Shown here one piece after another: positions 1-48,299 of a stretch of DNA of 64,000 bases. The notes beneath the pieces were generated by a model. The model saw nothing but the letters and a program-made list of their open reading frames with translations, had not been told where the DNA came from and ran no database searches. Positions within the stretch are counted from its first letter, which is position 1; every line of letters starts with the position of its first letter. A program made the translations under genes and the position numbers. This stretch comes from Candidatus Rokuibacteriota bacterium. GTDB taxonomy: Bacteria; Methylomirabilota; Methylomirabilia; Rokubacteriales; CSP1-6. The stretch is from positions 40,878-104,877 of the forward strand of contig JAUSJX010000078.1 in the NCBI GenBank assembly GCA_030647435.1, in the 5' to 3' direction.

Positions 1-771
1 TACATCGACATCAACTGCGACATGGGCGAGAGCTACGGCCGCTGGACCCTCGGCAACGACGAGGGCGTCATGCCCCACATCACGTCCGCCAACATCGCCT
101 GCGGCTTCCACGGGGGCGACCCCCACGTGATGCGGAAGACGGTCGAGCTGGCGCTCAAGCACGGCGTGGCGATCGGCGCCCACCCCGGCCTGCCCGACCT
201 CATGGGCTTCGGCCGCAGGCGGATGGAAGTGTCGCCGCAGGAGATCAAGGACATCCACCGGTATCAAGTCGGCGCGCTCGGCGCCTTCGTCAAGGCGGCG
301 GGCACCACGCTCCAGCACGTCAAGGCCCACGGCATCCAGTACCACATGTTCGAGGAGAACCTGGAGCTGGGCCGCGCCTCGGCCGAGCAGGTGCTGGAGC
401 TCGACCCGAACCTGATCCTCATGGTCATGGCGATGACCAAGTACGACGCCGAAGCGCGCAAGACCAAGGTGCGCGTCGCCGCCGAGGGCTTCGCGGACCG
501 CGTCTACGCCGACGACGGCCAGCTCGTCTCGCGCAAGCTCGGTAAGGACGCGCTCGTCTCCGATCCGTCAAAGGCCGCCGAACAGGCGGTGCGGATGGTG
601 ATGGAGCAGAAGGTCAAGACGATCACGGGCAAGACCATCAGCGCCAAGGTGGACACCATCTGCATCCACGGCGACAGCCCGGGCGCGGACAAGATCGTTG
701 CGGCGGTGCGCGAAGGGCTCGTCAAGGCGGGCGCGGTCGTCAAGCCGCTGCGCGACTGGTTCAAGGGCTAG
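1..771 (+). CDS. pxpA: 5-oxoprolinase subunit A (LamB/YcsF family), 5'-partial; reading frame is open from base 1
   Basis: N-terminal YIDINCDMGE plus HGGDP and ICIHGD motifs are typical of LamB/YcsF lactam utilisation proteins. The ORF is in frame from the first base of the window. Confidence 0.8.
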   Translation, partial: YIDINCDMGESYGRWTLGNDEGVMPHITSANIACGFHGGDPHVMRKTVELALKHGVAIGAHPGLPDLMGFGRRRMEVSPQEIKDIHRYQVGALGAFVKAAGTTLQHVKAHGIQYHMFEENLELGRASAEQVLELDPNLILMVMAMTKYDAEARKTKVRVAAEGFADRVYADDGQLVSRKLGKDALVSDPSKAAEQAVRMVMEQKVKTITGKTISAKVDTICIHGDSPGADKIVAAVREGLVKAGAVVKPLRDWFKG

Positions 772-772
772 C

Positions 773-1105
773 TTAGATCGGGGTCAGGTCTTGCATTCCT
801 ACATTTGCCTCGGGACGCCACCGGGGTAAGCGATGGTTCGCCGGGACCTGATGTCGGATTGCAAGACCTGACCCCGCCGGCCGCCGGTAGGTCCCATCAG
901 GGGCTTCGACCAGCAAGTTGTTGTTGGAGAAGGACACCAGCTTGCCCCAGCCCTTAGGCACGCTCATCTCGTACTTGGGGGCGGCCGTCTGCGCATGGGC
1001 ATCGCGCGGCCGGAGCTGCCCCATCCAGAGATGGCCGGCGATGGCGATCAAGGCAAAGGCGATGACGGGAAGCACGGCTTTCGTGTAACGGTCGGCGGCG
1101 GTCAT
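773..1105 (-). CDS. Hypothetical small protein with an N-terminal transmembrane segment (AVLPVIAFALIAIAGHLW). Its C-terminal about 30 codons are encoded by a hairpin repeat.
   Basis: ATG at 1105 is preceded by GGAGGA. The hydrophobic helix is followed by a soluble domain. No family was recognised. Confidence 0.45.
   Translation of the reverse strand: MTAADRYTKAVLPVIAFALIAIAGHLWMGQLRPRDAHAQTAAPKYEMSVPKGWGKLVSFSNNNLLVEAPDGTYRRPAGSGLAIRHQVPANHRLPRWRPEANVGMQDLTPI
781..878. repeat. Imperfect inverted repeat. The 20-bp arms GGGGTCAGGTCTTGCATTCC / GGATTGCAAGACCTGACCCC are separated by about 60 bp and sit between convergent gene ends.
   Basis: Read directly from the sequence: the arms are reverse-complementary with one mismatch. 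A 20-mer within it (GATGTCGGATTGCAAGACCT) recurs exactly at 50891-50910. Confidence 0.6.
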
Positions 1106-1169
1106 GGCAGCGTCCTCCTCGTCGTTGGGTAAGCTCGTGTGCTGACGATATTCGGCACGAGGGTGGCTT

Positions 1170-2210
1170 TCAAGGGGCCTCATGGCTGCCTCTGGAGCGG
1201 AGGATGCCCTCGAGCCGCTCCGCGGCGCGGTCCCAGTCGAAGCGTGACGTGACGAAGGCTCGGCCCTGGCGGGCGAGGCGCTCGCGGAGCGCGGCGTCGG
1301 TCACCATGCGCTCGAGCACCTGGGCCAGCGCGGCCACATCGCACCGCGGCGCCACCAGCGCGGTCTCGCCGTCCTTCGCATAGTCGCGGCAGCCGCCGTT
1401 GTCGAAGGTGACGAGCGCGGCGCCGCAGGCCATGGCCTCCATAGGCGGCATGCCGAGCCCCTCGTCCCAGGACGGGCAGAGATAGATGGGACACCGGCTG
1501 TAGAGCCACGCGAGGCGTTCCTGAGGCAGGTTCTCGTGGAACTCGTCGTACGGCAGCGCCTCGCGCGGGCGCTTGACACCGAAGCCCACCAGCAGGACGG
1601 AAGAGTGCCGCACCTTGACCGCCGCGACAGCCTCGAGCCCTTCGCGCACGCCCTTCCACGCGTAGTCGTGGTGGAGCATGAGCACGCGGAGGGCGTCGTC
1701 CGACCGTGCGCCTTCGACCGGACGGAAGAGCTCGCGGTCCACGGGAGTAACCAGGACGTCGGCCGCGCTCGCGAAGCGCTCCCGCATGATGTCCTTGAGC
1801 CACGTGGAGATGACGATCTTCTTGAGCGGCAGCGCGTAGGTCGCGTCCACCCGAGCGGGGTCCCCGTGGTAGAGGCTTTCGTAGTGCTGGACGAAGTAGA
1901 ACTTGGCGCCGGCGCTCGCGGACGCCCGCGCGACGGCATCGGCCGACTGCCACGCCGTGGCGATGAGCGCGTCGGCATGCGGTAGACGCGCGGGATCCCA
2001 CTCCGCCACCCAGCGCACGCGGGCGCGGAAGCCCGGGATCCAGTCCGGCCCCTGCCCGCGGACATTGCGCCACCAGACGAGCCAGGGCTGCTTGGCGGGC
2101 ACCACCACGGTGACGTCGTGGCCGCGCCCGGTGAGGCGATCCGCGTAGGTCAGGATGGCGCGCACGCCGCCGGCGATGCGGATATGCGGCGCGAGAAAGG
2201 TGATCTTCAA
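1170..2210 (-). CDS. GT4 (GT1-fold) family glycosyltransferase
   Basis: The EX7E-type C-terminal region (CPSWDEGLGMPPMEAMACGAALV) is typical of retaining GT-B glycosyltransferases. The likely start is TTG at 2210 (MKITFLAPHIRIAGG). The longer ORF running to 2246 would be encoded by the REP-like repeat. Confidence 0.75.
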   Translation of the reverse strand: MKITFLAPHIRIAGGVRAILTYADRLTGRGHDVTVVVPAKQPWLVWWRNVRGQGPDWIPGFRARVRWVAEWDPARLPHADALIATAWQSADAVARASASAGAKFYFVQHYESLYHGDPARVDATYALPLKKIVISTWLKDIMRERFASAADVLVTPVDRELFRPVEGARSDDALRVLMLHHDYAWKGVREGLEAVAAVKVRHSSVLLVGFGVKRPREALPYDEFHENLPQERLAWLYSRCPIYLCPSWDEGLGMPPMEAMACGAALVTFDNGGCRDYAKDGETALVAPRCDVAALAQVLERMVTDAALRERLARQGRAFVTSRFDWDRAAERLEGILRSRGSHEAP

Positions 2211-2220
2211 GAACGCCCCA

Positions 2221-2330
2221 CCCTCACCCTTCCCTCTCCCTCCCAAGAGGGAGAGGGAATCAAACAGGTCCCCTCTCCACCTTCGAGGGGGGAGAGGGCC
2301 AGGGTGAGGGGGAGGCGGTCCGCGGCATCA
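2221..2330. repeat. REP-like composite palindromic repeat (CCCTCTCCC..GGGAGAGGG and CCCTCACCC..GGGTGAGGG hairpins)
   Basis: Nested inverted repeats are seen directly. The same unit family occurs at 33571-33652 and 39901-40017. Confidence 0.6.
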
Positions 2331-3980
2331 GATGGCCATCGAGACCTGGCCGCCGCGGCGGTAGGCGCCGGGGTCCAGCACCACGTTGATGCAGAAGACC
2401 TCGCCCGAGCCCATGGCGCGATCGAGCGCGGGGCGGAGCTGCTTCGGCTCGGTCACCTGCACGCCCTTGCCGCCGAGCGCTTCCACCATCTGGTCGAAGC
2501 GCGTGAAGGGCAGCGAGGTCGCCACCTGGCGTTCGGCGCCGAAGAAGGAGAGCTGCGGGTTGCGGATCTGCCCCCAGCCACCGTCGTTGCCGATCACCAC
2601 CGTCATCGGCAGCTTGAAGCGCACGGCCGTCTCCATCTCCATGCCGTTCAGCCCGAACGCGCCGTCGCCCGCGATCAGCAGCACGCGCTCCGCCGGGCGC
2701 AGCAGTTTGGCGGCGATGGCGAAGGACGGCCCCACACCCAGGCACCCGAACGGCCCCGGGTCGAGCCACTGCCCCGGGCGCTGGAGCGAGACGATCTTCG
2801 ACGCGCAGCCGACCACGTCGCCCCCGTCGCCGACGACCGTGGTCTGCGCATCGACGACGGCGGCCAGCTCGTGGCCGAGGCGGTAGTGGCTGATGGGCAC
2901 GCTGTCGGAGAGCCGCTCCGCCATGAGCCGCTCCTGGCTCTCAGTCTCTTTCTTCTTGACGGCCTGCCGCCACGCCTCGAAGCGCCCTGCCACGTTCTTC
3001 GAAAGCGCCTCCTTCGCTCCTCGCAGCGTGAGCCCGATGTGAGACGCGAGCCCAAGCTCGAGAGGCCGGTTGCGCCCCAGCTCGACAGGATCACAGTCCA
3101 CCATCACCACCTTGACGTGTTCAGCGAAGGACGGCGGCCGGCCATAGCCCAGACGGAAATCGAGCGGTGTGCCGAGGACGAGGACGAAGTCCGCCTGCCC
3201 CAGCGCGAAGCCGCGCGCCTGTGAGAAGCCGAGCGGATGTCCCGCGGGAAGGGACCCGCGTCCGGCGCCGTTCATGAAGACGGGTACGCCGGCGGCCTCC
3301 GCGAAAGCCGCGAGATCCGCCGCCGCGTCATCCCAGTAGACACCACTCCCCGCCATGACGATGGGCCGCTCGGCCTTCGACAAGAGATCGGCGAGCTTCT
3401 GGACCGACTCCGCATCGGGCGCGAGCGGCCGGCGATGGACATACCCCGTCGGGATGGGCGCAAAACGATCCTCGACCATGGTCATCAGGAGATCCACGGG
3501 GATCTCGACGAAGACCGGACCCGGCCTGCCGGTCAGCGCGGTGCGGATGGCCGTCGTCAAGACTTCCGGTATCTGGCGGGTCTCGGAGACCGTCCACGAG
3601 CCCTTGGTGATCGGCTTGAGGAGATCAACCTGCTCGACTTCCTGGAGCGAGCCGAGCCCGCGCAGCCCGAGCGGCGCCGCGCCGCCGATCAGGAGCAGAG
3701 GGCTCCGCGCCGAGTACGCGTTGGCGACTCCCGTCACCGCGTCGGTCACGCCGGGCCCCGCCGTCACGGCGGCCACGCCGATGTTGCGCGTCAGCCGCGC
3801 GTAGGCGTCGCCCGCGTGCGCCGCCGCCTGCTCGTGGCGCACGTCCACCACCTCGACACCCTCGGTAATGCAGCCGTCATAGATCGGCAGGATGTGCCCG
3901 CCGCAGAGCGTGAAGATGTGGCCGACGCCCGCCTGCTTGAGCGTCCGCGCCACCAAGTGCCCGCCGTTCAGATCCGCCAT
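2328..3980 (-). CDS. Thiamine-diphosphate-dependent enzyme, acetolactate-synthase large-subunit-like
   Basis: ThDP-binding GDG(A/S)..N motif (IAGDGAFGLNGMEMETAVRFKLPMTVVIGNDGGWG) and an N-terminal Pyr domain (HIFTLCGGHILPIY). ATG at 3980 follows GGAGG. Confidence 0.85.
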   Translation of the reverse strand: MADLNGGHLVARTLKQAGVGHIFTLCGGHILPIYDGCITEGVEVVDVRHEQAAAHAGDAYARLTRNIGVAAVTAGPGVTDAVTGVANAYSARSPLLLIGGAAPLGLRGLGSLQEVEQVDLLKPITKGSWTVSETRQIPEVLTTAIRTALTGRPGPVFVEIPVDLLMTMVEDRFAPIPTGYVHRRPLAPDAESVQKLADLLSKAERPIVMAGSGVYWDDAAADLAAFAEAAGVPVFMNGAGRGSLPAGHPLGFSQARGFALGQADFVLVLGTPLDFRLGYGRPPSFAEHVKVVMVDCDPVELGRNRPLELGLASHIGLTLRGAKEALSKNVAGRFEAWRQAVKKKETESQERLMAERLSDSVPISHYRLGHELAAVVDAQTTVVGDGGDVVGCASKIVSLQRPGQWLDPGPFGCLGVGPSFAIAAKLLRPAERVLLIAGDGAFGLNGMEMETAVRFKLPMTVVIGNDGGWGQIRNPQLSFFGAERQVATSLPFTRFDQMVEALGGKGVQVTEPKQLRPALDRAMGSGEVFCINVVLDPGAYRRGGQVSMAI

Positions 3981-3996
3981 GGGTATTCCTCGCCTC

Positions 3997-4704
3997 CTAC
4001 CAGAACTTCTCCCACTTGACGCTCTTGCGGTCCATGCCTTTCGTGACGAGGGCGTCGCGGACGGCGTTGACCGTGTCGCCGCCGCCGCAGACATAGACCA
4101 CGAGCTTGTCCACGCTGTGGACGAGCCGGTCCACGACGGCGGCGGCCTCGCCCGACTCGCCGCGCCAGCCCGCGGGCGCCGCGCGCACCGCCGCCACGTA
4201 AGTGAAGCCGGGGTAGCGCCGCGCGAGGGAGCGGAACTCGGCGTCGTAGAGGAGCCACGAGGGGTCGCGCGCCCAGTAAATCAGGATGGTCTGGCGGCCG
4301 TAGCCCGTCTCGTAGAGATTGGCAAGGATCGACCGCACCGGCACGATGCCGATCTCCTCGGCGACGAAGACGGCGCGGCGCGGGTCGGCGCGGTTGAAGG
4401 TGAAGCCTCCCGTCGGCCCCTTGAACTCCACCGGATCGCCGGGCTTGAGCGCCCGCAGCCACTGGGACCCCATGCCCCCGGGCGCGACGTCCACGGCCAG
4501 CGTGATCGTCCGCTTGCGCGTGGGCGACGACAGGATAGTCCAGGCGCGCACGGTCTTGGGGCCGAAGGGCACTGAGATCCACTGCCCCGCATCGAAGTCG
4601 AGCGCGTCCGGCTCGACCATGCGGAGATCCACTTCGATCACTTCGGGGCGCGGCCAGCGGATGCCGGCAACCTCCGCCCGGCACTCCCGTGGCTTGGCAG
4701 CCAA
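3997..4704 (-). CDS. FNR-like FAD/NAD(P)-binding oxidoreductase (ferredoxin-NADP reductase-type two-domain reductase)
   Basis: An FAD-binding beta-barrel region (FDAGQWISV) is followed by an NAD-binding Rossmann region. The start abuts the stop of the upstream LLM gene. Confidence 0.65.
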   Translation of the reverse strand: MAAKPRECRAEVAGIRWPRPEVIEVDLRMVEPDALDFDAGQWISVPFGPKTVRAWTILSSPTRKRTITLAVDVAPGGMGSQWLRALKPGDPVEFKGPTGGFTFNRADPRRAVFVAEEIGIVPVRSILANLYETGYGRQTILIYWARDPSWLLYDAEFRSLARRYPGFTYVAAVRAAPAGWRGESGEAAAVVDRLVHSVDKLVVYVCGGGDTVNAVRDALVTKGMDRKSVKWEKFW

Positions 4705-5631
4705 CTACCGCCCCCGGAACTTCGGGAAGAGTTCGGCGGCGTACGTCTCGATCTGCTCGGCCTCGGCGGCGGCGGCGCAGATCGCGTTGAGGACGAAGTA
4801 GGAGCAGCCGGCCTCGATGAAGCGCTGGAGCTGCTCCGCGCACTGCTCCGGCGTGCCGATGATGCCGTACCTCTTCGCCAGCGGCGCGAAGTCCTGGGCG
4901 TAGCGCGTCGAGAGCCGCTCGACCCACGCCCGCTCGGCGCTCTCGTAGTCCTTGCCGACGGTGATGAAGGTCAGGTGCGCCTTCGTGAAGCCCTCGAGCG
5001 AGCGGCCCGCCATCGCCGCGGCCGCCTCGATCTTGGCGAGGCTCTGCTTGTAGCGCTCCGCCTGGACGACGTAGGAGATCCAGCCGTCGCCCTGCCGCCC
5101 CGCGCGGGCGAGCGCCGCGTCCGAGCGGCCACCGATCCAGATGGGCGGCGCGGGCCTCTGGACGGGCTTGGGATCTATGCTCACGCCCTCGAATTGGGTG
5201 AAGCGCCCCGTGAAGCTGGCCGGCGAGTCGCGCCAGAGCGTGCGCACGACGTCGATGCCTTCCGTGACGCGCGCGCCGCGTTCCTTGTGGGGAATGCCGC
5301 AGGCCTCGAACTCCTTCGGGTTCTCCCCGCCGACACCGACGCCGAAGATGAGGCGCCCCCCCGACAGGGCGTCGAGGGTCGAGGTGATCTTGGCTGCCAC
5401 CGTCGGCTGGCGGAGCGCGAGCAAGTAGACGCCCGCGCCGAGCTTGACCCGGCTCGTGATGCCGGCGTACGAGGCCAGGAGCGTCAGCGACTCGTAGAGC
5501 GGGGTGTGAAAGGAGACGTGATCCCCGGTCCACAGCGAATCGAAGCCGAGCGCGTCCACGCGGCGCGCGATGGCGAACTGCTCCTGGGGCGGGTGCAGCG
5601 AGAGAAAGGCGCCGAAGCGGATGGGCGGCAT
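4705..5631 (-). CDS. Luciferase-like monooxygenase (LLM) class, F420-dependent-type oxidoreductase
   Basis: TIM-barrel LLM signatures (FDSLWTGDHVSF, IFGVGVGG) are present. Confidence 0.8.
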   Translation of the reverse strand: MPPIRFGAFLSLHPPQEQFAIARRVDALGFDSLWTGDHVSFHTPLYESLTLLASYAGITSRVKLGAGVYLLALRQPTVAAKITSTLDALSGGRLIFGVGVGGENPKEFEACGIPHKERGARVTEGIDVVRTLWRDSPASFTGRFTQFEGVSIDPKPVQRPAPPIWIGGRSDAALARAGRQGDGWISYVVQAERYKQSLAKIEAAAAMAGRSLEGFTKAHLTFITVGKDYESAERAWVERLSTRYAQDFAPLAKRYGIIGTPEQCAEQLQRFIEAGCSYFVLNAICAAAAEAEQIETYAAELFPKFRGR

Positions 5632-5634
5632 GGG

Positions 5635-7695
5635 TTACCTCGGGAAGGCGTCCTTGACCCCGCCGTCCACCGTGATGGTGCAGCCCGTGGTCTTGGCCGA
5701 GCGGTCGGAGGCGAGGAAGAGCACGGCCTCCGCCACATCCTCGGGCAGGATGGGCGCGGCCAGGATGTTGCGCTTGCGGTAGAAGTCCTCGAGCTGCTCG
5801 ACCGTGATGCCCTGGGCGCGGGCGCGCTCGCGCCGGACGTCCTCCGACCAGAGCTTGGAGTCGCGGAAGACGGCGTCCGGGTTGACGATGTTGGAACGGA
5901 TGCCGTGCGGTCCGCCTTCCAACGCCAGCACCTTGGCCAGCTGCGCCTCGGCGGCCTTGGCGGCAGAGTACGCGGCGAAGTCCTTGCCCGGCGACATGAC
6001 GTTCTTGGTGGCGACGAAGACGAAGGCGCCGCCCAGCCCCTGCGCCTTGAGGACGCGCATCCCCTCGCGCGCCACGAGGAAGTGGCCCGTCGAGTTGACG
6101 GCGAAGGAGCGCTCCCAGTCCGCGAGGCTCATCTGGTCCACGGGGGAGGAATGCGCGATGCCCGCGTTCGAGACGATGATGTCGAGGCCGCCGTAGGCCA
6201 GCACGGCTTCCTCGAAGCCCGAAATCACCGACGCTTCATTCGAAACGTCCATCCCCACGCCGATCGCCCGTCCCGCTCCCGAGCCCGCGACGACTTCGTC
6301 GGCCACTTTGCGCGCCCCGGCGGCGTCGAGGTCGGTTACGACGACGTGCGCCCCCTCGGCGGCAAGGCGGAGCGCCGCGGCCCGGCCGATGCCCGAGGCT
6401 CCGCCGGTGACGAGCGCGATGCGCCGCGCCAGCTCCTTTTCGGGAGGCGCCTGGCTGAGCTTGTAGAGCTCGAGCGGCCAGTACTCGACATCGAACGCGT
6501 CTTTGGCGGTCAGCGAGACGTAGCTACCGAAGGACGTCGCCGCGCCCAGGACGGAGATCGTGTGGTGGTAGATGTCGTTGACGATGCCGGCGGTGCGGCG
6601 ATCCTTGCCGGTGGTGAACATCCCCAGCCCCGCCACCGTGATCACCCGCGGGAAGGCGTCGGTCAGCGCCGCGCCGCCCGCGTTGTGGGCGTTGAAGTAC
6701 GACGTGTAGTCGGCGACGAAACGTTCCACGGACGCCTTGATGGCGGCGGTCACCGCCGCGGGATCCCGCGGATCGTCCACCGGGGCGAAGCAGGGCAGCC
6801 GCTTGGTGTAAATGGTGTGGTCAGGGGTCGCGGGGCCGATCGTCGAGAGCGGCGCCGCCTCTTTCGAACACGCGAACTCGAGGACGTCGGGGGCGTCGTC
6901 GAAGGCCATGACACCACGGCGGTCTCTGCCGAGGAGCCCCCGCAGCGCGGGAGCCACGGCCAGCGCGACGCGCCGCCTCTCCTCGGGCGATGCGGCGGCC
7001 ACGGCGGCGCCGCCGAAGCGCGCGCGCCCTTTCGCCCGGTGCGCGATGGCCTCCTCGGCCCGGCTGATCAGCTCCATCGTCGAGAGATACGCTTCCTTGA
7101 CCGTGGCGCCCCAGCAAATCGTCCCGTGCTTCTCGAGCAGGAGCGCCTTGACCTTGGGATGGCGCTCGAACGTCTCGGCGACCTCGCGCGAGATCAGGAA
7201 GCCCGGGCGCCGGTACGGGAGCGCGATGACGTCGCCGCCGTAGACCTCGCGCAAGACATCGGCCGCGCGATCGTTGTTCGTGAGCGAGACGATGGCGTCG
7301 GCATGGGTGTGGATGACCGCCTCGGCGGGCAGGAAGCCGTGCAGCAGCGTCTCGATGGACGGCCGCGGGCTCGCCGGCTCCTGGAGGGCGTGCGCCAGGT
7401 AGTCCACCATCTCCTGGTCGCCCATGTCTCGGCGCTCGAGGAGCGCCAGGATGTCGTCCATGCGCACGCCGGGGAAGTGCTTCTTCTCGATGCTCTTGAG
7501 GTCCGATCCCGAGCCCTTGACGCGCAGCACGCGGACGTCCCGCCCCCGATAGTCACGCTCGGCGCGCTTGATCGACGTGTTTCCCCCGCCCCACACGACG
7601 AGCGAGGTCTCGGCGCCGATCAGCCGCGAGGCGTAGACGAGGAGGTCGAGGGCGTCGAGATTTTTCGCCGCGGCGTCATCCCAGCGCGACTTCAT
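5635..7695 (-). CDS. Bifunctional rhamnulose-1-phosphate aldolase (class II aldolase/adducin domain) / short-chain dehydrogenase
   Basis: N-terminal class II aldolase domain and C-terminal SDR domain (TGGASGIGRA, NAG, YSAAK). The architecture matches the known bifunctional RhaD-SDR family. Confidence 0.85.
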   Translation of the reverse strand: MKSRWDDAAAKNLDALDLLVYASRLIGAETSLVVWGGGNTSIKRAERDYRGRDVRVLRVKGSGSDLKSIEKKHFPGVRMDDILALLERRDMGDQEMVDYLAHALQEPASPRPSIETLLHGFLPAEAVIHTHADAIVSLTNNDRAADVLREVYGGDVIALPYRRPGFLISREVAETFERHPKVKALLLEKHGTICWGATVKEAYLSTMELISRAEEAIAHRAKGRARFGGAAVAAASPEERRRVALAVAPALRGLLGRDRRGVMAFDDAPDVLEFACSKEAAPLSTIGPATPDHTIYTKRLPCFAPVDDPRDPAAVTAAIKASVERFVADYTSYFNAHNAGGAALTDAFPRVITVAGLGMFTTGKDRRTAGIVNDIYHHTISVLGAATSFGSYVSLTAKDAFDVEYWPLELYKLSQAPPEKELARRIALVTGGASGIGRAAALRLAAEGAHVVVTDLDAAGARKVADEVVAGSGAGRAIGVGMDVSNEASVISGFEEAVLAYGGLDIIVSNAGIAHSSPVDQMSLADWERSFAVNSTGHFLVAREGMRVLKAQGLGGAFVFVATKNVMSPGKDFAAYSAAKAAEAQLAKVLALEGGPHGIRSNIVNPDAVFRDSKLWSEDVRRERARAQGITVEQLEDFYRKRNILAAPILPEDVAEAVLFLASDRSAKTTGCTITVDGGVKDAFPR

Positions 7696-7743
7696 GGCCA
7701 GCGCGACTTCATGGCGACACCATACCTGAAAGGGAGGGGCGCC

Positions 7744-8616
7744 TCAAGACGCGACGTCCCGCTGAGCCAGCCACACGCCGACGGAGGAGACGAGGAATCC
7801 CAGCATGGCCGTCGCCGTCAATGTCTCGCCGAGAACCACCCAGGCGAGGACGGCCGTGAGCCCCGGGATGACGTAGAAATTGCTCGACACTACGCCCGCG
7901 GTGCGCGAGCGCAGCATGAGCCCGAAAAGCCCCATGGCCCCAACCGAAACGGCCAGCGCGAGGTAGAGGGTGCTGCCGATGAGCCGCCAGGTCCACGCGA
8001 CGTGGAACGACTCCACCGTCGCCGCGAGGACAGCGCAGAGGACGGCGGCTGAGCCCATCTGGACCGCGTTGCCCGGCACGAGCGCGCCACCGCCGCAGTA
8101 GCGGCGGAAGTAGATGCTGCCGACGGCGAAGCAGACGATGCCGCCGACGGCCAGGAGCGCCGCGGCGACGCTCCGGCCGGGCACCGGCGCGACCCCCACG
8201 ACGAGGACGACACCCGTCACGCCCAGCGTCAGCCCAAGCCACTGGACGAGCCGCATGCGTTCGCCCAGGATGATCCAGCCGAGCAGGGCCGTCAGCATAG
8301 GGTTGAGCGCCGCGAGGAGCCCCATGGTGCCCGCGGCGAGATACTGGAGGGTGACGTAGGCGGTGGCGAGATAGATGCCGTTCATGAGCGCCCCCGCCAC
8401 AACAAAGTGGGGCCAGCGGCGGCCGAGCACGGCCGGCGGCTGACCCACAGCCCGCGCCAGCGCCAGGAGCACGACCGTCGCGATCGTGAAACGGAGCGCC
8501 AGCGAGGCGATGGGCGACATGTCGGGCAGGCTCAGCCTGACGACGATATAGGCCGAGCTCCAGAGGAAGATGAATGCGGCAGGCACGAGGACGCGCTGGG
8601 CCAGCGTGTGAGGCAT
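7744..8616 (-). CDS. EamA/DMT-family transporter (10 TM)
   Basis: Two repeated EamA halves with hydrophobic helices. Confidence 0.8.
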   Translation of the reverse strand: MPHTLAQRVLVPAAFIFLWSSAYIVVRLSLPDMSPIASLALRFTIATVVLLALARAVGQPPAVLGRRWPHFVVAGALMNGIYLATAYVTLQYLAAGTMGLLAALNPMLTALLGWIILGERMRLVQWLGLTLGVTGVVLVVGVAPVPGRSVAAALLAVGGIVCFAVGSIYFRRYCGGGALVPGNAVQMGSAAVLCAVLAATVESFHVAWTWRLIGSTLYLALAVSVGAMGLFGLMLRSRTAGVVSSNFYVIPGLTAVLAWVVLGETLTATAMLGFLVSSVGVWLAQRDVAS

Positions 8617-8881
8617 GGGCTCTATGCTTTAGACTGGCGGGACCAGGAAAGGAATCCCAGAATGAGTGAACCGATTGCGCGCGAGGTGCAGGCCTACTAT
8701 GCCCGAGGGGGAGAGGCCCGGCGTCTCTTCCGGACCCACGGGCTGATCGAGCTCGCGCGCACCCAGGAGATCATCCTGCGCCACCTCCCTCCGCCGCCTG
8801 GGCCGTCGAAAGCGAGCCCGCGCTCCTTGGCATCCACCCGCACCTGCTCGCCGTGGCGCGCCGCCCGACCTCAAATCCGGG

Positions 8882-8910
8882 TTGACACGCGGGCTCGGGC
8901 CGCTTAACGT
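8882..8910 (+). promoter_or_regulatory. Putative sigma70-type promoter for the 8944-12445 operon: -35 TTGACA (8882-8887), 17-nt spacer, -10 TAACGT (8905-8910), then RBS GGAGG at 8927-8931
   Basis: Consensus hexamers with canonical spacing were read directly. It is about 35 nt upstream of the ATG at 8944. Confidence 0.4.
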
Positions 8911-8943
8911 CCGGATTCAAGGGCACGGAGGTTCCCCCAGGAC

Positions 8944-9987
8944 ATGTCGAGCACCTATCGCTACCAGATCCCGGTCGAGCAGACGCAGTGGAAGTTCGAG
9001 GGGCAGAACGAGACCATCCTCAACTGGGAATACGAGGACGGGCACGCGAAACTCCTGGCCCTCTACGACAAGGGCAAGAAGCAGCAGTGGGACGCCGCCA
9101 CGCGCATCGACTGGTCCCAGGACCTCGACCCCGAGAACCCGATGATGCTGGACGACCGGGCCGTGCCGATCTGGGGCTCGCCAGTCTGGGAGCGGCTCAC
9201 CGAGAAGGAGCGGGTCCGCGTCCGCCATAACCTCCAGGCCCAGACGCTCTCGCAGTTCATGCACGGCGAGCAGGGCGCGCTCATCGCCACGGCCAAGATC
9301 GTCCAGACGGTGCCCGGCGTCGACGCCAAGTTCTACGCAGCGACCCAGGTCATGGACGAGGCGCGCCACGTCGAAGCCTACGCGCGCCTCCTCCACGAGA
9401 AGTTCGAGCTGGCGTACCCGATCACGCACGGTCTCAAGACCCTCCTCGAGCAGACGATCAGCGACCGCCGCTGGGACATGACCTACCTCGGCATGCAGAT
9501 CCTGATCGAGGGCCTGGCGCTCGCGGCCTTCCAGCGCATCCGCGACACGGCGAAGAACCCCCTCGCGGCGGCCGTCAACGCCTACGTCATGCAGGACGAG
9601 GCCCGCCACGTCGCCTTCGGGCGCCTGGCGCTGCGCGACTACTACCCGAACCTCTCGGACGGGGAGCGCGACGAGCGCGAGGAGTTCGTGGTCGAGGCCT
9701 GCTACCACATGCGCGACCGCTTCAACCAGCGCGAGGTGTGGGAGACGCTCGGGCTTCCGGTGGAAGAGTGCGTCCAGGCGACCATGCAGTCCGACCAGAT
9801 GCGCCAGTTCCGGACGCGCCTCTTCACCCGCATCGTGCCGACCGTGAAGGACATCGGCCTCTGGGGCCAGCGCGTCCAGAAGGCCTACGCCGACATGGGC
9901 GTGCTGGACTTCGCCACGATCGACGCGGAGGCGCTCCTCGACAACGACGCGAAGGTCGCCGAGGAGTTCGACGCCGGCCGGCGTTGA
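8944..9987 (+). CDS. Ferritin-like diiron-carboxylate oxygenase, AurF (p-aminobenzoate N-oxygenase)-like
   Basis: Two E-x(2)-H diiron ligand motifs (DEARHVEAY and DEARHVAFG) in a four-helix ferritin-like frame. The protein length of 347 aa fits the AurF/CmlI family. Confidence 0.65.
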   Translation: MSSTYRYQIPVEQTQWKFEGQNETILNWEYEDGHAKLLALYDKGKKQQWDAATRIDWSQDLDPENPMMLDDRAVPIWGSPVWERLTEKERVRVRHNLQAQTLSQFMHGEQGALIATAKIVQTVPGVDAKFYAATQVMDEARHVEAYARLLHEKFELAYPITHGLKTLLEQTISDRRWDMTYLGMQILIEGLALAAFQRIRDTAKNPLAAAVNAYVMQDEARHVAFGRLALRDYYPNLSDGERDEREEFVVEACYHMRDRFNQREVWETLGLPVEECVQATMQSDQMRQFRTRLFTRIVPTVKDIGLWGQRVQKAYADMGVLDFATIDAEALLDNDAKVAEEFDAGRR

Positions 9988-10817
9988 CGCGGGGAGTGGC
10001 GCTGGGCGTGGCGCTGGCCTTCCTGCCGGGCGCCGCCGCCGCCGACGGCATCATGCTCATCCAGGCCGGCGCCTTCTGGATGGGCAGCGACAGCGATGAC
10101 CCGAACGAGGTGCCGCTCCACCGGGTGTACGTCCGGGACTTCTGGATCGATCGTCACAAAGTGACCAACGCCGAATTCGTCCGGTTCCTCAACGCCCGGG
10201 GCGCCAGGAGCTCCGAAGGCGAGGACTACTTCGACTGGGACGATGCGGACGTGCGAATCCACGGGCCGGTTCGCGGGGGGCCGGGGCGCGGACCGGCGGG
10301 CCCCTACGCGGTCGATCCGGGCTTCGAGAATCACCCGGCGGTGGAAGTGAGCTGGTTCGGCGCGCGGGACTACTGCCTCTGGAAGGGCCGCCGCCTGCCG
10401 ACGGAAGCGGAGTGGGAGAAGGCGGCGCGCGGCCCGGACAAGCGCCGCTACCCGTGGGGCGACGCGGCGCCGACGCCCGCTCGCGCGATCTACGGCCGCG
10501 CGTACAACGCCACGGCGCCCGTGGGCGCGACGACGCCCGGAGGCGAGAGCCCCGACCGCGTCCAGGACATGCTGGGCAACGTGAGAGAGTGGACGGCGAG
10601 CGAGTACCGCCCCTACCCGTACGTGGCGGGTGACGGGCGCGAGGCCGCCGGGCGCTTCGCCCGCCGCGTGGTGCGCGGAGCGAGCCACGACGATCCGCTC
10701 GAAACACTGCGCGTGACGTTCCGCCGCTACCACGAGCATCGCGGCGTCGCCCGCGGCCACCACTTCATCGGGTTCCGCTGTGCCACGTCGGAGGACTTGG
10801 GGGAAATGGCCAAATGA
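9984..10817 (+). CDS. Formylglycine-generating-enzyme family protein (SUMF1/EgtB/PvdO fold) with a predicted signal peptide
   Basis: FGE-sulfatase-domain motifs (RVYVRDFWIDRHKVTNAEF, RLPTEAEWEKAARG, GNVREWT, RVVRGAS). The TTG start at 9984 overlaps the upstream TGA. The N-terminus MTRGVALGVALAFLPGAAAADG looks Sec-type. Confidence 0.8.
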   Translation: MTRGVALGVALAFLPGAAAADGIMLIQAGAFWMGSDSDDPNEVPLHRVYVRDFWIDRHKVTNAEFVRFLNARGARSSEGEDYFDWDDADVRIHGPVRGGPGRGPAGPYAVDPGFENHPAVEVSWFGARDYCLWKGRRLPTEAEWEKAARGPDKRRYPWGDAAPTPARAIYGRAYNATAPVGATTPGGESPDRVQDMLGNVREWTASEYRPYPYVAGDGREAAGRFARRVVRGASHDDPLETLRVTFRRYHEHRGVARGHHFIGFRCATSEDLGEMAK

Positions 10818-12445
10818 AGGGTCTGATCATGGACTACCCGCTGACGCTCACGCAGTTCTTCGAGCGGGCGCGCAAGATCTTCCACCGGAAGACGATGGCC
10901 ACCCGCGTGCCAGGGCTCGGGCTCCAGCGCTACACCTACCGCGACTACGCGGACCGCGTCTGCCGGCTCTCGGCGGCGCTCGCGGGCCTCGGGCTCAAGA
11001 AGGGCGACCGGGTCGGGACGTTCGCGTGGAACTCGCACCGGCACATGGAGATCTACTTCGCCGCGCCCTTGATGGGCATGGTCCTGCACACCGTCAACAT
11101 CCGTCTCTCGGCCCAGGACCTGACCTACATCATCAACCACGCCGAGGACCAGGTCCTGATCGTGGACGCGAGCCTCTGGCACCTCCTCGAGCCCATCCGC
11201 AAGGACCTCAAGAGCGTCAAGCACGTGATCGTCATGAAGGACTCGCCGACCGCCGAGATCCCCGCGGGCGCGCTCGACTACGAGGCGCTGGTGGCTGACG
11301 CGAACCCGATTGAGGCCTGGCCGAAGCTGGACGAGACCGACGCCGCGGGCATGTGCTACACGTCCGGCACGACCGGGCACCCCAAGGGCGTGCTCTACAC
11401 CCACCGCGGGATCTATCTGCACTGCTTCGGCTCGTCCACGGTGGACGTGCTCGGCATCTGCGAGCGCGACGTCATCCTGCACATCGTGCCGATGTTCCAC
11501 GCCAACGCCTGGTGCGTGCCCTTCGCCGGCGTCATGAACGGCTCCACGCAGATCTTCGGCGGCCCCAACCCCCAGCCGCGCGACATCATCGAGATCGTCC
11601 ACAACGAGCGCGTCACCGTGGTCGGCGCCGTCCCCACGGTGTGGATCGCCATCCAGGCCATCCTCGAGAAAGAGCCGCAGTGGGACATCTCGTCCATCCG
11701 CTGCATCCCCATCGGCGGCTCAGCGGCGCCCAAGAGCCTCATCGAGCTGTTCGACAAGAAGTACGGCGCCTACATGCTCCACGCCTGGGGCATGACCGAG
11801 ATGTCGCCGCTCGGGACCGTGTGCCGCCCCCGCTCCTACACGGACAGCCTGCCCGAGGAGGAGCGCTACAACATCCGCGCCAAGCAGGGCGCGATGGTGG
11901 CGGGCGTGGACATGCGGATCGTCGACGAGGGCGGCAGACTCCAGCCATGGGACGGCAAGAGCGTGGGCGAGATCCAGGTGCGCGGGCCCTGGATCACCAG
12001 TGGCTACTACAACAACCCGGCCGGCGCCGCGCAGTTCACCGAAGACGGCTGGTTCCGCACCGGCGACGTGGCCAGCATCGACTCCGAGGGCTACGTCCAG
12101 ATCACCGACCGGACCAAGGACCTGATCAAGTCGGGCGGCGAGTGGATCTCGAGCGTGGACATGGAGACCGCGATCATGGACCACCCGAAGGTCCTCGAGG
12201 CGGCCGTCATCGCGGTGCCCCACGAGCGCTGGCAGGAGCGGCCGCTCGCCTGCGTCGTGCCCAAGCCGGAGTTCAAGGACAAGCTGACCGAGAAGGAGAT
12301 CCTCGACCACCTCACGCCGCGTGTCGCCAAGTGGTGGCTGCCCGACGAGGTCGTCTTCATCGACGCCGTGCCCAAGACCTCCGTCGGCAAGTTCGACAAG
12401 AAGGTCCTGCGCGAGCGCTTCAAGAACTGGAAGCCGAAGGCGTAG
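10814..12445 (+). CDS. Acyl-CoA synthetase / AMP-dependent ligase (long-chain fatty-acid--CoA ligase-like)
   Basis: AMP-binding motif YTSGTTGHPKGV plus the C-terminal GEWIS and VGKFDK motifs. The ATG overlaps the upstream TGA (ATGA). Confidence 0.85.
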   Translation: MKGLIMDYPLTLTQFFERARKIFHRKTMATRVPGLGLQRYTYRDYADRVCRLSAALAGLGLKKGDRVGTFAWNSHRHMEIYFAAPLMGMVLHTVNIRLSAQDLTYIINHAEDQVLIVDASLWHLLEPIRKDLKSVKHVIVMKDSPTAEIPAGALDYEALVADANPIEAWPKLDETDAAGMCYTSGTTGHPKGVLYTHRGIYLHCFGSSTVDVLGICERDVILHIVPMFHANAWCVPFAGVMNGSTQIFGGPNPQPRDIIEIVHNERVTVVGAVPTVWIAIQAILEKEPQWDISSIRCIPIGGSAAPKSLIELFDKKYGAYMLHAWGMTEMSPLGTVCRPRSYTDSLPEEERYNIRAKQGAMVAGVDMRIVDEGGRLQPWDGKSVGEIQVRGPWITSGYYNNPAGAAQFTEDGWFRTGDVASIDSEGYVQITDRTKDLIKSGGEWISSVDMETAIMDHPKVLEAAVIAVPHERWQERPLACVVPKPEFKDKLTEKEILDHLTPRVAKWWLPDEVVFIDAVPKTSVGKFDKKVLRERFKNWKPKA

Positions 12446-12719
12446 CGCGGGCCCCTGCCGGACTCGCCTCGCCTCAGACCTGGATGCCTCGTCGGAAGGT
12501 CGTCAAGCGCAGCGCCGGGCGCCGCCCCGGTCAGCCGGCGGGGCGGTTCTGGTACGGCGCGCGGAGAGCATAGCGTGGCGATCAAGGAGCAGGACGGTCA
12601 CAACCGCTTGGGTTCGCCACCAGTCTGAGGTGCACCCTGCAGGGGCATTGACTGAGCGCCGTAGATGCTGGAGTATTGTGTGGCCTCAAGGTGAACTGAA
12701 GTAGGCGGATCTGCTGTGA

Positions 12720-13261
<542 letters not shown>

Positions 13262-13272
<11 letters not shown>

Positions 13273-13693
13273 GATTCTCCTAGCCGATAGCGCTGAGGTC
13301 CGCGAGGGCCTCCTCTTCCTTCTTGGCGGCGGGTGGGCGGAGACGGGCCCGGCACCGCAGCCGTTCGCGATCGCCGGGCTCGTCGAGGTTGATTGGGAGG
13401 AGACCAACGCACGCCACTCTATCGAATTCACGCTGGAGGATGAAGACGGTGCGCCATTGGTCGTCCCAACGCCCGCGGGAGACCAACCCGTCAAGATAGC
13501 TTCAGCATTCGAGCTTGGCCGCCCGCCTGGCAGCGTTCGCGGCAGTTCGTTCAACATGCCTGTCGCCGTCCCGATCGTGGCGCTCCCATGGACGCCGGGG
13601 CGGCGCTATGTAATCCGGCTCACTATCGACGGGGCTGAGGTGGACCGGCTCAAGTTCTCGGTCAGAGCGGGCCTGCTAGCGCCACAACGCTGA
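13262..13693 (+). CDS. Hypothetical protein, 143 aa, no recognisable family; start overlaps the BrnA-like gene
   Basis: An ORF in a lower-GC island with overlapping stop/start, which suggests co-transcription with the TA pair. Confidence 0.4.
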
Positions 13694-13805
13694 AGAACTA
13701 CTGGTCTGTGGTCGCAGAAGGGAATGGTAAGCCGTCGGCTCGGCTGAGCTTAGAGGACCCCGCCCGAAACCAACGATACTACGGCGTAGCCGCCCCTGCC
13801 CCTTG

Positions 13806-14360
13806 TCAGGGTGTCACTGTGAATGGATACCGTGCGATGATCTGATCGTCGATAGTCAACTCAAGGGGCCATTCACCGGGCACCTGGACGTTGACGGATG
13901 GTAGCACTTGCGTGAACCATGTCCGAGTCGAGGTGGCAGTAGAATCACGCAACACGCGATCCTGCTGCGCTGCCAGAGTCCCGTCAGGCTTGTACCACTT
14001 GAATTTCCCCATCGGGGTGCGCCCCGACTTGTACAGATTCAAGAAGAACGTTGCAGGCTGATCCGCCTTGAATTGGGACACGGGTTCGGGGAATGTCTGG
14101 AGAGTGCCGGTCGGCGGCGTCACTTTAATGACGTACGCCCGAACCACAAGATCCTTCGGCTGAGCGGTCGCGTACTGGGCCTTAGAGCTATCCGCCCGGT
14201 ACTTCGCCACGCAGTCTTGAAACAATCTGTAGTTCCCGTCGTTGTTCTGCTTGACCCAGTACCTGCCATCAGCCTCCACACGATCAATCCACACTCCGGG
14301 AAAGTGATCGCACGCTCGCATGGCGTCCATCGTTGCATCTTGCTGGGGCGTGTTCTGCAT
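13806..14360 (-). CDS. Hypothetical protein, 184 aa, no recognisable family
   Basis: An ORF in the same lower-GC island. There is no start codon upstream of the in-frame lipobox-like LVGC, so no signal peptide is predicted. Confidence 0.45.
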   Translation of the reverse strand: MQNTPQQDATMDAMRACDHFPGVWIDRVEADGRYWVKQNNDGNYRLFQDCVAKYRADSSKAQYATAQPKDLVVRAYVIKVTPPTGTLQTFPEPVSQFKADQPATFFLNLYKSGRTPMGKFKWYKPDGTLAAQQDRVLRDSTATSTRTWFTQVLPSVNVQVPGEWPLELTIDDQIIARYPFTVTP

Positions 14361-14752
14361 CGAGCCACATCCGACAAGTACGATTGAGCTTCAGACGACT
14401 GCCCAACCCGCTAGCCGTCGGAACATCCCTCCTGGATTCCCCTTGTGCATGGGTCTCCTTCCAAGCGCCTCTGCTGGGCCTTGACCACGTTCCCGACAGC
14501 CAAGGCCTTCGAGCGCGTCGGAATCACAGGACGCTCGATCGACCGCCGCTCCCCTCGCCTCGGCCAGGGCACCGAAGCCTCCCCGCCACAACCCTCCCTC
14601 GGCAACGGACTATGGCATGTGAGAGACCCTGGGGCAATGGCGGCCGTGCACGGTCATGAGTACCCCGTGCCGCGAGACGCGCTTCTTGGTAGGAGGCGGC
14701 GCGCCGTCTATACTTGGCGCAGCGGTGCTTCCATCACATAGGAGGGTATAGA

Positions 14753-33570: not shown

Positions 33571-33652
33571 CACCCCCTCACCCTGACCTTCTCCCCCTCA
33601 CCCTACCCTCTCCCCCTCTGGGGGAGAGGACACAGGTGAGGGGGAGAGGGGA
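33571..33652. repeat. REP-like composite palindromic repeat (same family as 2221-2330)
   Basis: CCCTCACCC/CCCTCTCCCC..GGGGGAGAGG/GGTGAGGG nested inverted repeats in the E1beta-E2 intergenic spacer. Confidence 0.6.
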
Positions 33653-39900: not shown

Positions 39901-40017
39901 CCCCTCACCCTCCCCTCTCCCCGAGGGGGACAGGGAAATCGGTTCCCTCTCCCTTCCAGGGCGAGAGGGCATTCGGTCCCCTCTCCCTTCCAGGGAGAGG
40001 GCAGGGTGAGGGTGGGT
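39901..40017. repeat. REP-like composite palindromic repeat: two tandem CCCTCTCCCTTCCAGGGAGAGGG hairpins flanked by CCCTCACCC/GGGTGAGGG
   Basis: Read directly from the sequence. Confidence 0.6.
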
Positions 40018-47793: not shown

Positions 47794-48299
47794 CGCGCCG
47801 ATCCTGCCAGATTGCGACGGCCCGGTCAAACCCGGCCCCGGCGCGTGCTGCAGGGGCAGAGTCCAACCCCGAGACTGGGACGGATTACTGATGGGAGGGG
47901 GCGGGAGCGCGCAGGTCGGCCGCCTCCTCGCTCGCCGCCGACCTGCGAAAGCCTACGATCTGCGGGCGCCAGCGAGCGTGCGGCGCCAGGACCCCCTGGT
48001 AGAGGAGCCAGTGCACCGCGGGCCGCGGCGTCAGCGCGGCCAGCCTCTCCAGGAACTCGGGATACACCAAAAGTCGGCATCCCACGCTTTTCCGCTTGAC
48101 AGCCTCGGCCGGGTGAGTCGGTCTCTCGGCAGCAGCCCTCGGCAAGTGCCGGCCCAGCGGCATGCATCGGTCCACCGGTGCGCGATCGGGCGGGATCCGA
48201 TCGAAAATCATTTCGCGTCCCGGGATCGCCCGGCCCGGGCGCTTCCCGGGGGCTCGAAAATCAGGGTGTAGGGTCACTTCAACAGAAGGAGGGCTCGTT

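Follow-up and report, generated by a model that had tools for sequence, protein, structure and literature searches.

Gene content of the cluster

The 64,000-nucleotide (nt) stretch analyzed here, hereafter the window, comes from a Candidatus Rokuibacteriota bacterium (assembly GCA_030647435.1, contig JAUSJX010000078.1, positions 40,878 to 104,877) and has a G+C content of about 70%. On its minus strand, between positions 1170 and 7695, lies a cluster of five long open reading frames (ORFs). In order of transcription they encode a fused class II aldolase and short-chain dehydrogenase/reductase (aldolase/SDR), a luciferase-like monooxygenase-family oxidoreductase (LLM), a small reductase of the ferredoxin-NADP reductase (FNR) family, a thiamine diphosphate (ThDP) enzyme and a family 4 glycosyltransferase (GT4) (Table 1). 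Pfam and NCBIfam searches returned the same domains that an initial annotation, made from the letters of the sequence, had assigned to these genes.

That annotation also described the genes as tightly packed, and the front of the cluster bears this out: 3 nt separate the aldolase/SDR gene from the LLM gene, the FNR gene starts directly at the LLM stop codon (0 nt; TAG, then TTG), and 16 nt lie between the FNR and ThDP genes. Two start codons need correcting. For the ThDP gene it is ATG 3980, preceded by the Shine-Dalgarno sequence AGGAGG, that gives the same length as in relatives, and an alternative start at 4094 would run into the FNR gene. The GT4 gene most likely starts at TTG 2210, with the N-terminus MKITFL. 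With these starts the last gap is 117 nt, taken up by a long hairpin resembling a repetitive extragenic palindromic (REP) element. A scan for promoter and terminator consensus sequences gave nothing useful within the cluster, and an Rfam scan of positions 1 to 14000 found no riboswitch or leader, only spurious microRNA-type matches on the hairpin.

Table 1. Coordinates of the cluster genes, their promoter and the adjoining features in the window
Feature	Position	Strand	Basis
Fused class II aldolase and SDR, RhaEW-type, 686 aa; first conserved gene	5635..7695	-	Pfam/NCBIfam
LLM oxidoreductase, TIGR03619/Rv2161c family, 308 aa; core gene	4705..5631	-	NCBIfam
FNR-family flavin/ferredoxin reductase-like protein, Fre/LuxG-sized, 235 aa; accessory	3997..4704	-	Pfam
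ThDP enzyme, 2-hydroxyacyl-CoA lyase/oxalyl-CoA decarboxylase/benzaldehyde lyase clade, 550 aa; accessory	2328..3980	-	PDB match
REP-like long hairpin between the ThDP and GT4 genes	2214..2321	-	Fold energy
Retaining-type GT4 glycosyltransferase, 346 aa; core gene that closes the unit	1170..2210	-	Pfam
-10-like hexamer TATGGT of the operon promoter	7719..7724	-	Conserved in 61/63 loci
Perfect 17-bp tandem duplication across the aldolase/SDR start region	7681..7714	-	Sequence
EamA/DMT transporter, upstream of the operon promoter	7744..8616	-	Pfam EamA
AurF-like di-iron oxygenase, first gene of the divergent operon; rare accessory	8944..9987	+	PF11583, 70.6 bits
Protein of FGE-sulfatase fold, exported	9984..10817	+	PF03781, 168 bits
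Acyl-CoA synthetase (ANL family), near-core divergent partner	10814..12445	+	NCBIfam, PDB

Conservation and modularity

A scan of one genome per species detected 142 relatives, and we compared the loci of the best 80 of these 142, which are 69 to 88% identical and mostly labelled Rokubacteria, Rokuibacteriota or Methylomirabilota, with a few under other bin names. The closest relatives of the LLM, 96% to 78% identical, come from soil metagenomes, the few named ones being Methylomirabilota metagenome-assembled genomes (MAGs). An exact-sequence look-up of the window LLM returned an identical 5.2-kb Logan contig (L001) as its sole match. Using the window proteins as tblastn queries over all fetched loci, we obtained 52 non-redundant, species-level loci that span the cluster from the aldolase/SDR through the GT4 gene, and 41 or 42 loci with enough flanking sequence.

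In 31 of the 52 spanning loci, in MAGs of different species, the full set of five genes occurs with its order and orientation unchanged. The initial annotation had held that the grouping would fall if the five never occurred together elsewhere, and this comparison failed to refute it. A core of aldolase/SDR, LLM and GT4 was found in every spanning locus (52/52) and stands alone in six, while the FNR gene alone is missing in 11 and the ThDP gene alone in four. Among the 31 five-gene loci, 14 carry an additional 137-aa gene of the vicinal oxygen chelate (VOC)/glyoxalase fold between the FNR and ThDP genes; across the spanning loci this VOC gene occurs only together with the ThDP gene and directly upstream of it. 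The flanked loci give a similar picture: the GT4 gene lies at most 8 kb downstream of the LLM gene in 40/42 and the aldolase/SDR gene upstream of it in 39/41, the ThDP gene is found in 31/42, and the FNR-like gene is found in 30/42 and missing in 12/42. In one short locus (L076, 4852-5265) the 137-aa ORF between LLM and GT4 is a relic of only the C-terminal ThDP-binding domain of the ThDP enzyme, indicating that the short aldolase/SDR-LLM-GT4 form arose by deletion.

The genes are also closely spaced in relatives. From aldolase/SDR to LLM the median gap is 2 nt across 74 loci, from the LLM stop to FNR it is 3 nt across 54 loci, and once the over-long N-termini of our ThDP and GT4 queries are corrected the median gaps between consecutive genes are 0 to 20 nt. 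Outside GT4 and the divergent AMP-binding (acyl-CoA synthetase) gene described below, the neighbors differ among loci L002, L003 and L006, which fixes the boundaries of the unit. A few loci carry inserted genes within the cluster, an opposite-strand phosphodiesterase and a CHAT-TPR protein, that look unrelated. The MAG MFD00962.bin.2.190 has two copies of part of the cluster, on contigs L037 and L060; the L060 aldolase/SDR matches at only 41% identity, and this second copy could reflect duplication, strain mixture or decay.

When the loci were aligned over the 80 nt in front of the aldolase/SDR start codon, a box, (G)GTATGGTG or GGTATCGTG, stood out from its surroundings. In 61 of 63 loci a TAnnnT hexamer (TATGGT in 30, TATCGT in 24) ends 6 to 10 nt short of the start codon, compared to 0.7% at random positions. 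The window copy lies just past the stop codon of an upstream EamA transporter gene, and a possible -35 element (CTTGAG/TTGAGG) overlaps that stop. The box resembles the -10 element of a transcript that would be leaderless or nearly so, and its conservation marks the aldolase/SDR gene as the first of the conserved operon. In many loci a divergent gene starts inside this promoter region.

Tight or overlapping genes in the window and its relatives, together with this conserved box before the first gene, agree with the single operon that had been proposed for the window. Family-level gene identity, operon structure, conservation and modularity were observed directly, and we have next to no doubt that the five genes form a real operon conserved within Rokubacteria, in dozens of uncultivated soil lineages. 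Beyond this lineage, we found no aldolase/SDR or GT4 gene near the distant plasmid-borne LLM homologs of M. branderi, S. meliloti, Tardibacter, Tsukamurella, Streptomyces and Natrinema. Those six contexts are heterogeneous, with CoA-transferase or adenylating-enzyme neighbors in three.

The aldolase/SDR is a RhaEW homolog

The first gene product contains the Pfam domains Aldolase_II and adh_short and passes the NCBIfam cut-offs of TIGR02632 (score 746, cut-off 568) and NF006189 (690, cut-off 634). On NF006190, the best model for both this protein and the Deinococcus deserti enzyme, it scores 867, below the cut-off of 1014, whereas the D. deserti enzyme scores 1216 and exceeds it. Aligned to the RhaEW protein of the D. 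deserti rha locus, it is 46% identical over 684 aa with a single one-residue gap. The aldolase domain has the metal-binding (Zn) His triad, the catalytic Glu and the phosphate loop (HTH 129-131, His190 of KHG, PSIE115TLLH and GGGNTS), all aligning with the D. deserti enzyme, and the SDR domain carries the motifs TGGASGIG, VVVTDLD, in which the Asp suggests a preference for NAD, and YSAAK.

Characterized RhaEW (YuxG/Caur_2283) converts L-rhamnulose-1-phosphate to dihydroxyacetone phosphate (DHAP) and L-lactate in an NAD+-dependent reaction and is inactive when supplied with NADH (Rodionova et al. 2013, PMC3870299). The window enzyme shares its two-domain architecture and length, shows the catalytic motifs given above except for the SDR Ser described below, exceeds the TIGR02632 and NF006189 cut-offs though not that of NF006190, and very probably has the same type of chemistry. 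The two differ in setting. RhaEW orthologs have been reported to lie always in rha loci (PMC3870299), and the present cluster contradicts that confinement: no isomerase, kinase, mutarotase or transporter gene is nearby, and an LLM gene follows 2 to 3 nt behind. In D. deserti, by comparison, the RhaEW gene sits between rhaI and the rhamnulokinase gene, and in both D. deserti and D. taeanensis the rhamnulokinase gene directly follows that of RhaEW, with lutABC-type lactate-oxidation genes behind it.

The Rokubacterial enzymes also carry their own changes in the SDR domain. The window protein, like at least 90% of the Rokubacterial orthologs, has Thr at the position of the catalytic Ser (ATKN in place of GSKN or ASKN), and the clade carries further fixed changes close to the SDR motifs (GIASSAP to GIAHSSP, STGYF to STGHF, AAAY to DFAAY). 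In a three-way comparison of 62 Rokubacterial orthologs with two Deinococcus and two alphaproteobacterial rha-locus enzymes, the lineage-specific fixed differences numbered 39 in Rokubacteria, 42 in alphaproteobacteria and 34 in Deinococcus. The Rokubacterial protein is thus no more diverged than genuine RhaEWs are among themselves.

The LLM and its optional reductase

The LLM matches Pfam Bac_luciferase (205 bits) and scores 199.7 against TIGR03619, above the cut-off of 166.9; the three NCBIfam models that fit it best all describe F420 families. Its best PDB sequence match is the F420-dependent enzyme Mer (98 bits), with SsuD at 72 bits. A Sinorhizobium meliloti homolog, 34.5% identical, adjoins cofC, cofD, cofH and npdG, and Rokubacteria have been reported to encode F420 biosynthesis (PMC8498797). 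The TIGR03619 match, the cof-linked homolog and the reported Rokubacterial F420 synthesis favor F420, so that the LLM step is probably F420-dependent. In the literature we found no known substrate for any TIGR03619 member.

The LLM thus resembles F420-dependent members of the family such as Mer, Fgd1 and Adf, the first two being its nearest solved structures, but it differs from them in being often coupled with an FNR-family reductase gene. No such partner is known to us for any F420-dependent LLM. The FNR-like protein has the Pfam domains FAD_binding_6 and NAD_binding_1, lacks an Fe-S domain and finds NqrF, MmoC, BenC and Fre in the PDB. Its RxYS flavin motif is conserved, and its NAD(P)H loop is a strictly conserved, non-canonical EEIG(I/V)VP where GGxGxxP would be expected. 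The start codon that abuts the LLM stop argues for a functional pairing whenever the reductase is present. An LLM gene followed directly by an FNR-family reductase of about 235 aa without an Fe-S domain recalls the pairing of luxAB with luxG; here, however, the LLM groups with F420 families rather than with LuxA or SsuD, the reductase is optional and its NAD loop is non-canonical.

This arrangement raises a possible but doubtful alternative, that the LLM and the Fre/LuxG-like reductase form a two-component flavin monooxygenase in which FMNH2 and O2 act on the aldehyde or another intermediate, in place of F420 hydride transfer. The 3-nt median spacing behind the LLM stop and the size and architecture of the reductase speak for it, as do the structural neighbors of the LLM, among which MsuD, SfnG and luciferase score nearly as well as F420 enzymes. 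Set against these are the TIGR03619 match, the F420 families that fill the three best models, the best PDB match to Mer, the reductase-free loci (12/42) and the conserved departure of the NAD(P)H loop from the canonical form. Of the flavin step with its own electron-transfer reductase that the initial annotation had proposed, the abutting gene arrangement therefore stands, while the frequent loss of the reductase and the F420-type family of the LLM count against it. The two-component reading is compatible with either overall model discussed below.

The ThDP enzyme, GT4 and the divergent genes

The ThDP enzyme has the Pfam domains TPP_enzyme_N, M and C. Its best PDB match is the 2-hydroxyacyl-CoA lyase (HACL) 6xn8, with an end-to-end alignment at 326 bits, followed by entries annotated as 2-hydroxyacyl-CoA lyase/synthase or oxalyl-CoA decarboxylase (OXC) at up to 307 bits; entries 7pt1-4 are also among the matches. 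Benzaldehyde lyase and the actinobacterial 2-hydroxyisobutyryl-CoA lyase each score 272 bits, and acetolactate synthases less than 210. All NCBIfam scores lie under their cut-offs, including PRK05858 (545, cut-off 587), HACL-ACT NF058623 (377, cut-off 600) and the OXC models TIGR03254 and NF006721 (299, cut-off 739, and 320, cut-off 557, respectively). With its ThDP motif (GDGAFG...GNDGG) and cofactor-activating Glu (VRHEQ), the protein is assigned by these matches to the clade of HACL, OXC and benzaldehyde lyase. The carboligation or decarboxylation that had been suggested for it can be narrowed to this clade; the gene is an accessory of the cluster.

The resemblance to the bacterial HACL/OXC family (6xn8, 7pt1) acting with an acyl-CoA ligase lies in the full-length alignment, the ThDP motif and an acyl-CoA synthetase gene that adjoins the operon; the window enzyme differs in falling below every equivalog cut-off and in its accessory status. 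Benzaldehyde lyase, a non-CoA enzyme, nearly equals HACL in score (272 versus 326 bits), which leaves a CoA substrate putative. The logic of converting an acid to its CoA ester and then splitting it with a lyase is known from 2-hydroxyisobutyrate degradation in actinobacteria. The synthetase gene lies upstream and divergent in 35 of 41 loci. Its product passes NF004837 (606, cut-off 476) and misses the DmdB-type model (612, cut-off 822); its best PDB match is the Thermus thermophilus long-chain fatty-acyl-CoA synthetase (536 bits), with a DmdB-like protein at 479.

The GT4 protein matches Glycos_transf_1 (80 bits) and has an EX7E motif (EGLGMPPME). Only its C-terminal nucleotide-sugar domain resembles known GT4s (SPS, MshA, GlgM, PglA), and it approaches no NCBIfam equivalog cut-off.

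In the window, the synthetase is the last gene of a divergent operon (8944-12445) in which the TTG start of a gene for a protein resembling formylglycine-generating enzyme (FGE) overlaps the stop of an AurF-like gene, and the synthetase ATG overlaps the FGE-like stop. The FGE-like gene lies divergently upstream in 25 of 41 loci. Its product matches CalU17, EgtB and FGE in the PDB and, in the window and most recovered ortholog N-termini, begins with a cleavable signal peptide, behind which stands a conserved ADGIMLIQAG; it therefore acts outside the cytoplasm. The AurF-like gene, whose product has no PDB sequence match, occurs only in L002-L005 and L010. The EamA gene, which in the window joins the minus-strand unit, is restricted to the window's subclade (L001, L003-L005). 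Two kinds of S-adenosylmethionine (SAM) methyltransferase are, like EamA and AurF, limited to few lineages.

A proposed pathway and its alternatives

We tentatively propose, with low confidence in the model as a whole, that the operon serves to cleave a ketose-1-phosphate and then to process the resulting hydroxy-acid fragment through CoA-thioester and F420-type reactions. The substrates, the order of the steps and the cofactor of the LLM are inferred. First, the RhaEW-type enzyme would cleave L-rhamnulose-1-phosphate or a close analog to DHAP and a 2-hydroxy-aldehyde, and would oxidize that aldehyde with NAD+ to a 2-hydroxy acid, which would be L-lactate if the substrate is rhamnulose-1-phosphate. 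The co-transcribed genes would then process this small fragment, standing roughly where LutABC sits in Deinococcus rha loci, after the kinase gene. The LLM would carry out a hydride transfer, probably F420-dependent, and the FNR-like protein, where present, may instead or additionally support a reduced-flavin step. In the full version of the pathway, the divergent synthetase would activate the hydroxy acid, the VOC protein may epimerize or isomerize the CoA ester, and the HACL-type enzyme would release formyl-CoA from it, leaving an aldehyde shortened by one carbon. GT4 belongs to the same unit.

Several observations weigh against this scheme. The synthetase is nearest to long- and medium-chain fatty-acyl-CoA ligases and DmdB-type ligases, not to a lactate ligase. 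The ThDP, VOC and FNR genes are dispensable, being missing in 11 to 12 of 42 loci, so the CoA branch cannot be the core function. A purely catabolic scheme leaves the near-invariant GT4 without a task, and the FGE-like partner is exported. In Foldseek the FMN-dependent enzymes MsuD and SfnG nearly tie with Mer and Fgd1, as judged on a poor AlphaFold model of the LLM built from a shallow alignment (pLDDT, predicted local distance difference test, 68). D. deserti RhaI, RhaB, RhaM, RhaS (the rhamnose-binding protein) and LutB have no tblastn match in the window and 87 related loci (1.29 Mb, reaching about 10 kb around the cluster), a search in which the RhaEW query matched 87 sequences. Pfam searches over most of the window found fatty-acid oxidation, branched-chain amino-acid transport and 2-oxoacid dehydrogenase genes but no sugar genes, and no isomerase, kinase, transporter or regulator that would supply a ketose-1-phosphate. 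Finally, the Ser-to-Thr change and the altered SDR-motif positions set the enzyme apart from all rha-locus enzymes and suggest that its aldehyde may be other than lactaldehyde.

A second overall reading, unlikely in our judgment, follows the initial annotation in seeing a biosynthetic or tailoring cluster that builds and exports a glycosylated small molecule or glycolipid. A 2-hydroxyacyl or diol-type aglycone would come from the synthetase and a condensing HACL-type enzyme and have its redox state set by the LLM and SDR. GT4 would attach a sugar, methyltransferases and the AurF-like enzyme would decorate the product, and EamA would export it. The core status of GT4 (40/42 loci) fits such a role, as do the lack of a regulator or uptake system in the unit and the resemblance of the synthetase to fatty-acyl-CoA synthetases; F420-type LLMs act on lipids in mycobacteria. 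The accessory content, with two kinds of SAM methyltransferase, AurF-like and EamA genes in some lineages, varies as it does in biosynthetic clusters, but these decorating genes are rare (four to five loci). The ThDP and FNR genes have been lost in many lineages that keep GT4, and no carrier protein, polyketide synthase, nonribosomal peptide synthetase, sugar-nucleotide or lipid-assembly genes are present. The aldolase/SDR, moreover, is as close to rha-locus RhaEWs as those are to one another, and characterized RhaEW works only in the direction of cleavage and oxidation, a catabolic reaction (PMC3870299). None of our tests supported deoxysugar or glycolipid tailoring, which is kept alive by the core GT4 and the decorating genes.

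Returning to ketose-1-phosphate cleavage, we consider it very unlikely that the enzyme simply serves ordinary L-rhamnose or L-fucose catabolism, with isomerase, kinase and transporter encoded elsewhere and the neighboring genes unrelated passengers. The protein does exceed the TIGR02632 and NF006189 cut-offs and is as near to Deinococcus RhaEW as alphaproteobacterial RhaEWs are. This reading would, however, detach it from the rha loci in which its orthologs have always been reported (PMC3870299), and RhaI, RhaB, RhaM, RhaS and LutB went unmatched around 87 copies of the gene. The LLM gene 2 nt behind the aldolase/SDR gene in the median of 74 loci and the clade-fixed changes at the catalytic Ser and other SDR-motif positions also speak against it. 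The pathway context, and probably the substrate, differ from those of a standard rhamnose operon, in agreement with the initial annotation.

There is similarly only a slight chance that the genes stay together through kinship of the MAGs, by descent alone, and share no pathway. The best 80 of the 142 relatives all belong to one lineage, and an unrelated convergent pair, PxpA and a second LLM, is also kept in 15 of 42 loci. This background retention of 36% for the PxpA neighbor compares with 93-95% for the core genes; in addition, the flanking genes vary on either side, neighboring genes touch or overlap at their start and stop codons, one conserved promoter element precedes the first gene, and internal genes have been cleanly deleted while order was kept. 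Readings based on sulfoquinovose or organosulfur compounds rested on weak resemblances (the FGE fold, the DmdB-like ligase, an SsuD-like LLM and an Xsc-like ThDP enzyme) and were dropped because the LLM and the ThDP enzyme are each closer to other families.

Window-specific features and surroundings

Two features at the cluster lie outside the conserved system. The hairpin between the ThDP and GT4 genes is about 100 nt long, with a folding energy of -82.5 kcal/mol and a z-score of -5.6. Its REP-like core, GGGAGAGGGnnGGGTGAGGG, is found four times in the window, where 0.01 occurrences would be expected. All of these copies seem to be intergenic (the others lie at 33595-33614, 39902-39921 and 39993-40012), and the core occurs 12 times in 1.22 Mb of related loci. 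Relatives lack the hairpin at this junction, and their ThDP and GT4 genes abut or overlap, which identifies it as a REP-like insertion rather than part of the system. The second feature, the 17-bp duplication, creates a six-codon upstream ORF, MKSRWP (ATG 7712 to TGA 7692), whose TGA overlaps the real aldolase/SDR start at ATG 7695. It is shared with the identical Logan contig L001 and with no other compared locus, L002 and L003 having a single copy; it could be an assembly artefact or a natural variant that influences how a normally leaderless gene is translated.

Downstream of GT4, the spacer 772-1169 contains a second type of palindrome (GGGGTCAGGTCTTGCA ... TGCAAGACCTGACCCC) and may hold a minus-strand gene for a small membrane-anchored protein. 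This candidate has a promoter-like site at 1173-1145 and GAGGAGG as its Shine-Dalgarno sequence. The ORF 773-1183 has no homolog in related loci, where a 110-aa lipoprotein gene is found instead, and no family match; at most, a small membrane protein with a Shine-Dalgarno sequence of its own may be encoded in the 3' two-thirds.

The gene for PxpA (LamB/YcsF; 22-771, plus strand) is convergent to the cluster. In relatives it is followed by a second LLM, 36% identical to the cluster LLM, and two CoA-transferase subunits (L002 17748-20927, L003 17272-20777). CoA-transferase A and B genes with a TIGR03619 LLM recur beside F420 biosynthesis genes on S. meliloti pSymA (L089 5199-7894), and CoA-transferase genes lie near the LLM homolog of the Natrinema plasmid. 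The CoA-transferase and LLM genes on the PxpA side may constitute a separate conserved F420/CoA module.

On the other side, about 2.2 kb of lower G+C (12446-14713; 0.60-0.64 against about 0.70) with DUF6941-type ORFs separates the synthetase gene from a patatin-like gene. These two genes are directly adjacent in L002, so the segment looks like an insertion. Farther away, paralogous DUF222-HNH endonuclease genes (42110-43483, minus strand; 48162-49685, plus strand), about 5 kb apart, flank genes for an aldehyde:ferredoxin oxidoreductase (AFOR, 44124-46025), a class A beta-lactamase-like protein and a glyoxalase-like protein.

Implications

Every protein family in the cluster is already known, and the operon is not a categorically new system. 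Its combination of genes, by contrast, is one for which we found no description in the literature searched. More speculatively, and with quite low probability, the catabolic and glycosylating parts could be joined in one pathway: a RhaEW-type enzyme working outside rhamnose catabolism, whose hydroxy-acid or aldehyde product passes through an F420-type LLM and an optional CoA-ligase/VOC/HACL branch to end in a glycoside made by GT4. The CoA branch would make or consume formyl-CoA, and the end product, such as a glycosylated hydroxy acid or diol, would act as a solute, cofactor precursor or envelope lipid. If true, this pathway would provide both bacterial HACL-type enzymes and the TIGR03619 family with a physiological role.

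The clean modularity of the operon, a core with deletable FNR, VOC and ThDP genes, and its leaderless-type promoter make it tractable for heterologous expression. Since the host phylum is abundant in soil and uncultivated, conserved operons of this kind are among the few handles on its metabolism, and this one provides a conserved genomic context for two poorly understood families, the bacterial HACL-like ThDP enzymes and the TIGR03619 F420-type LLMs.

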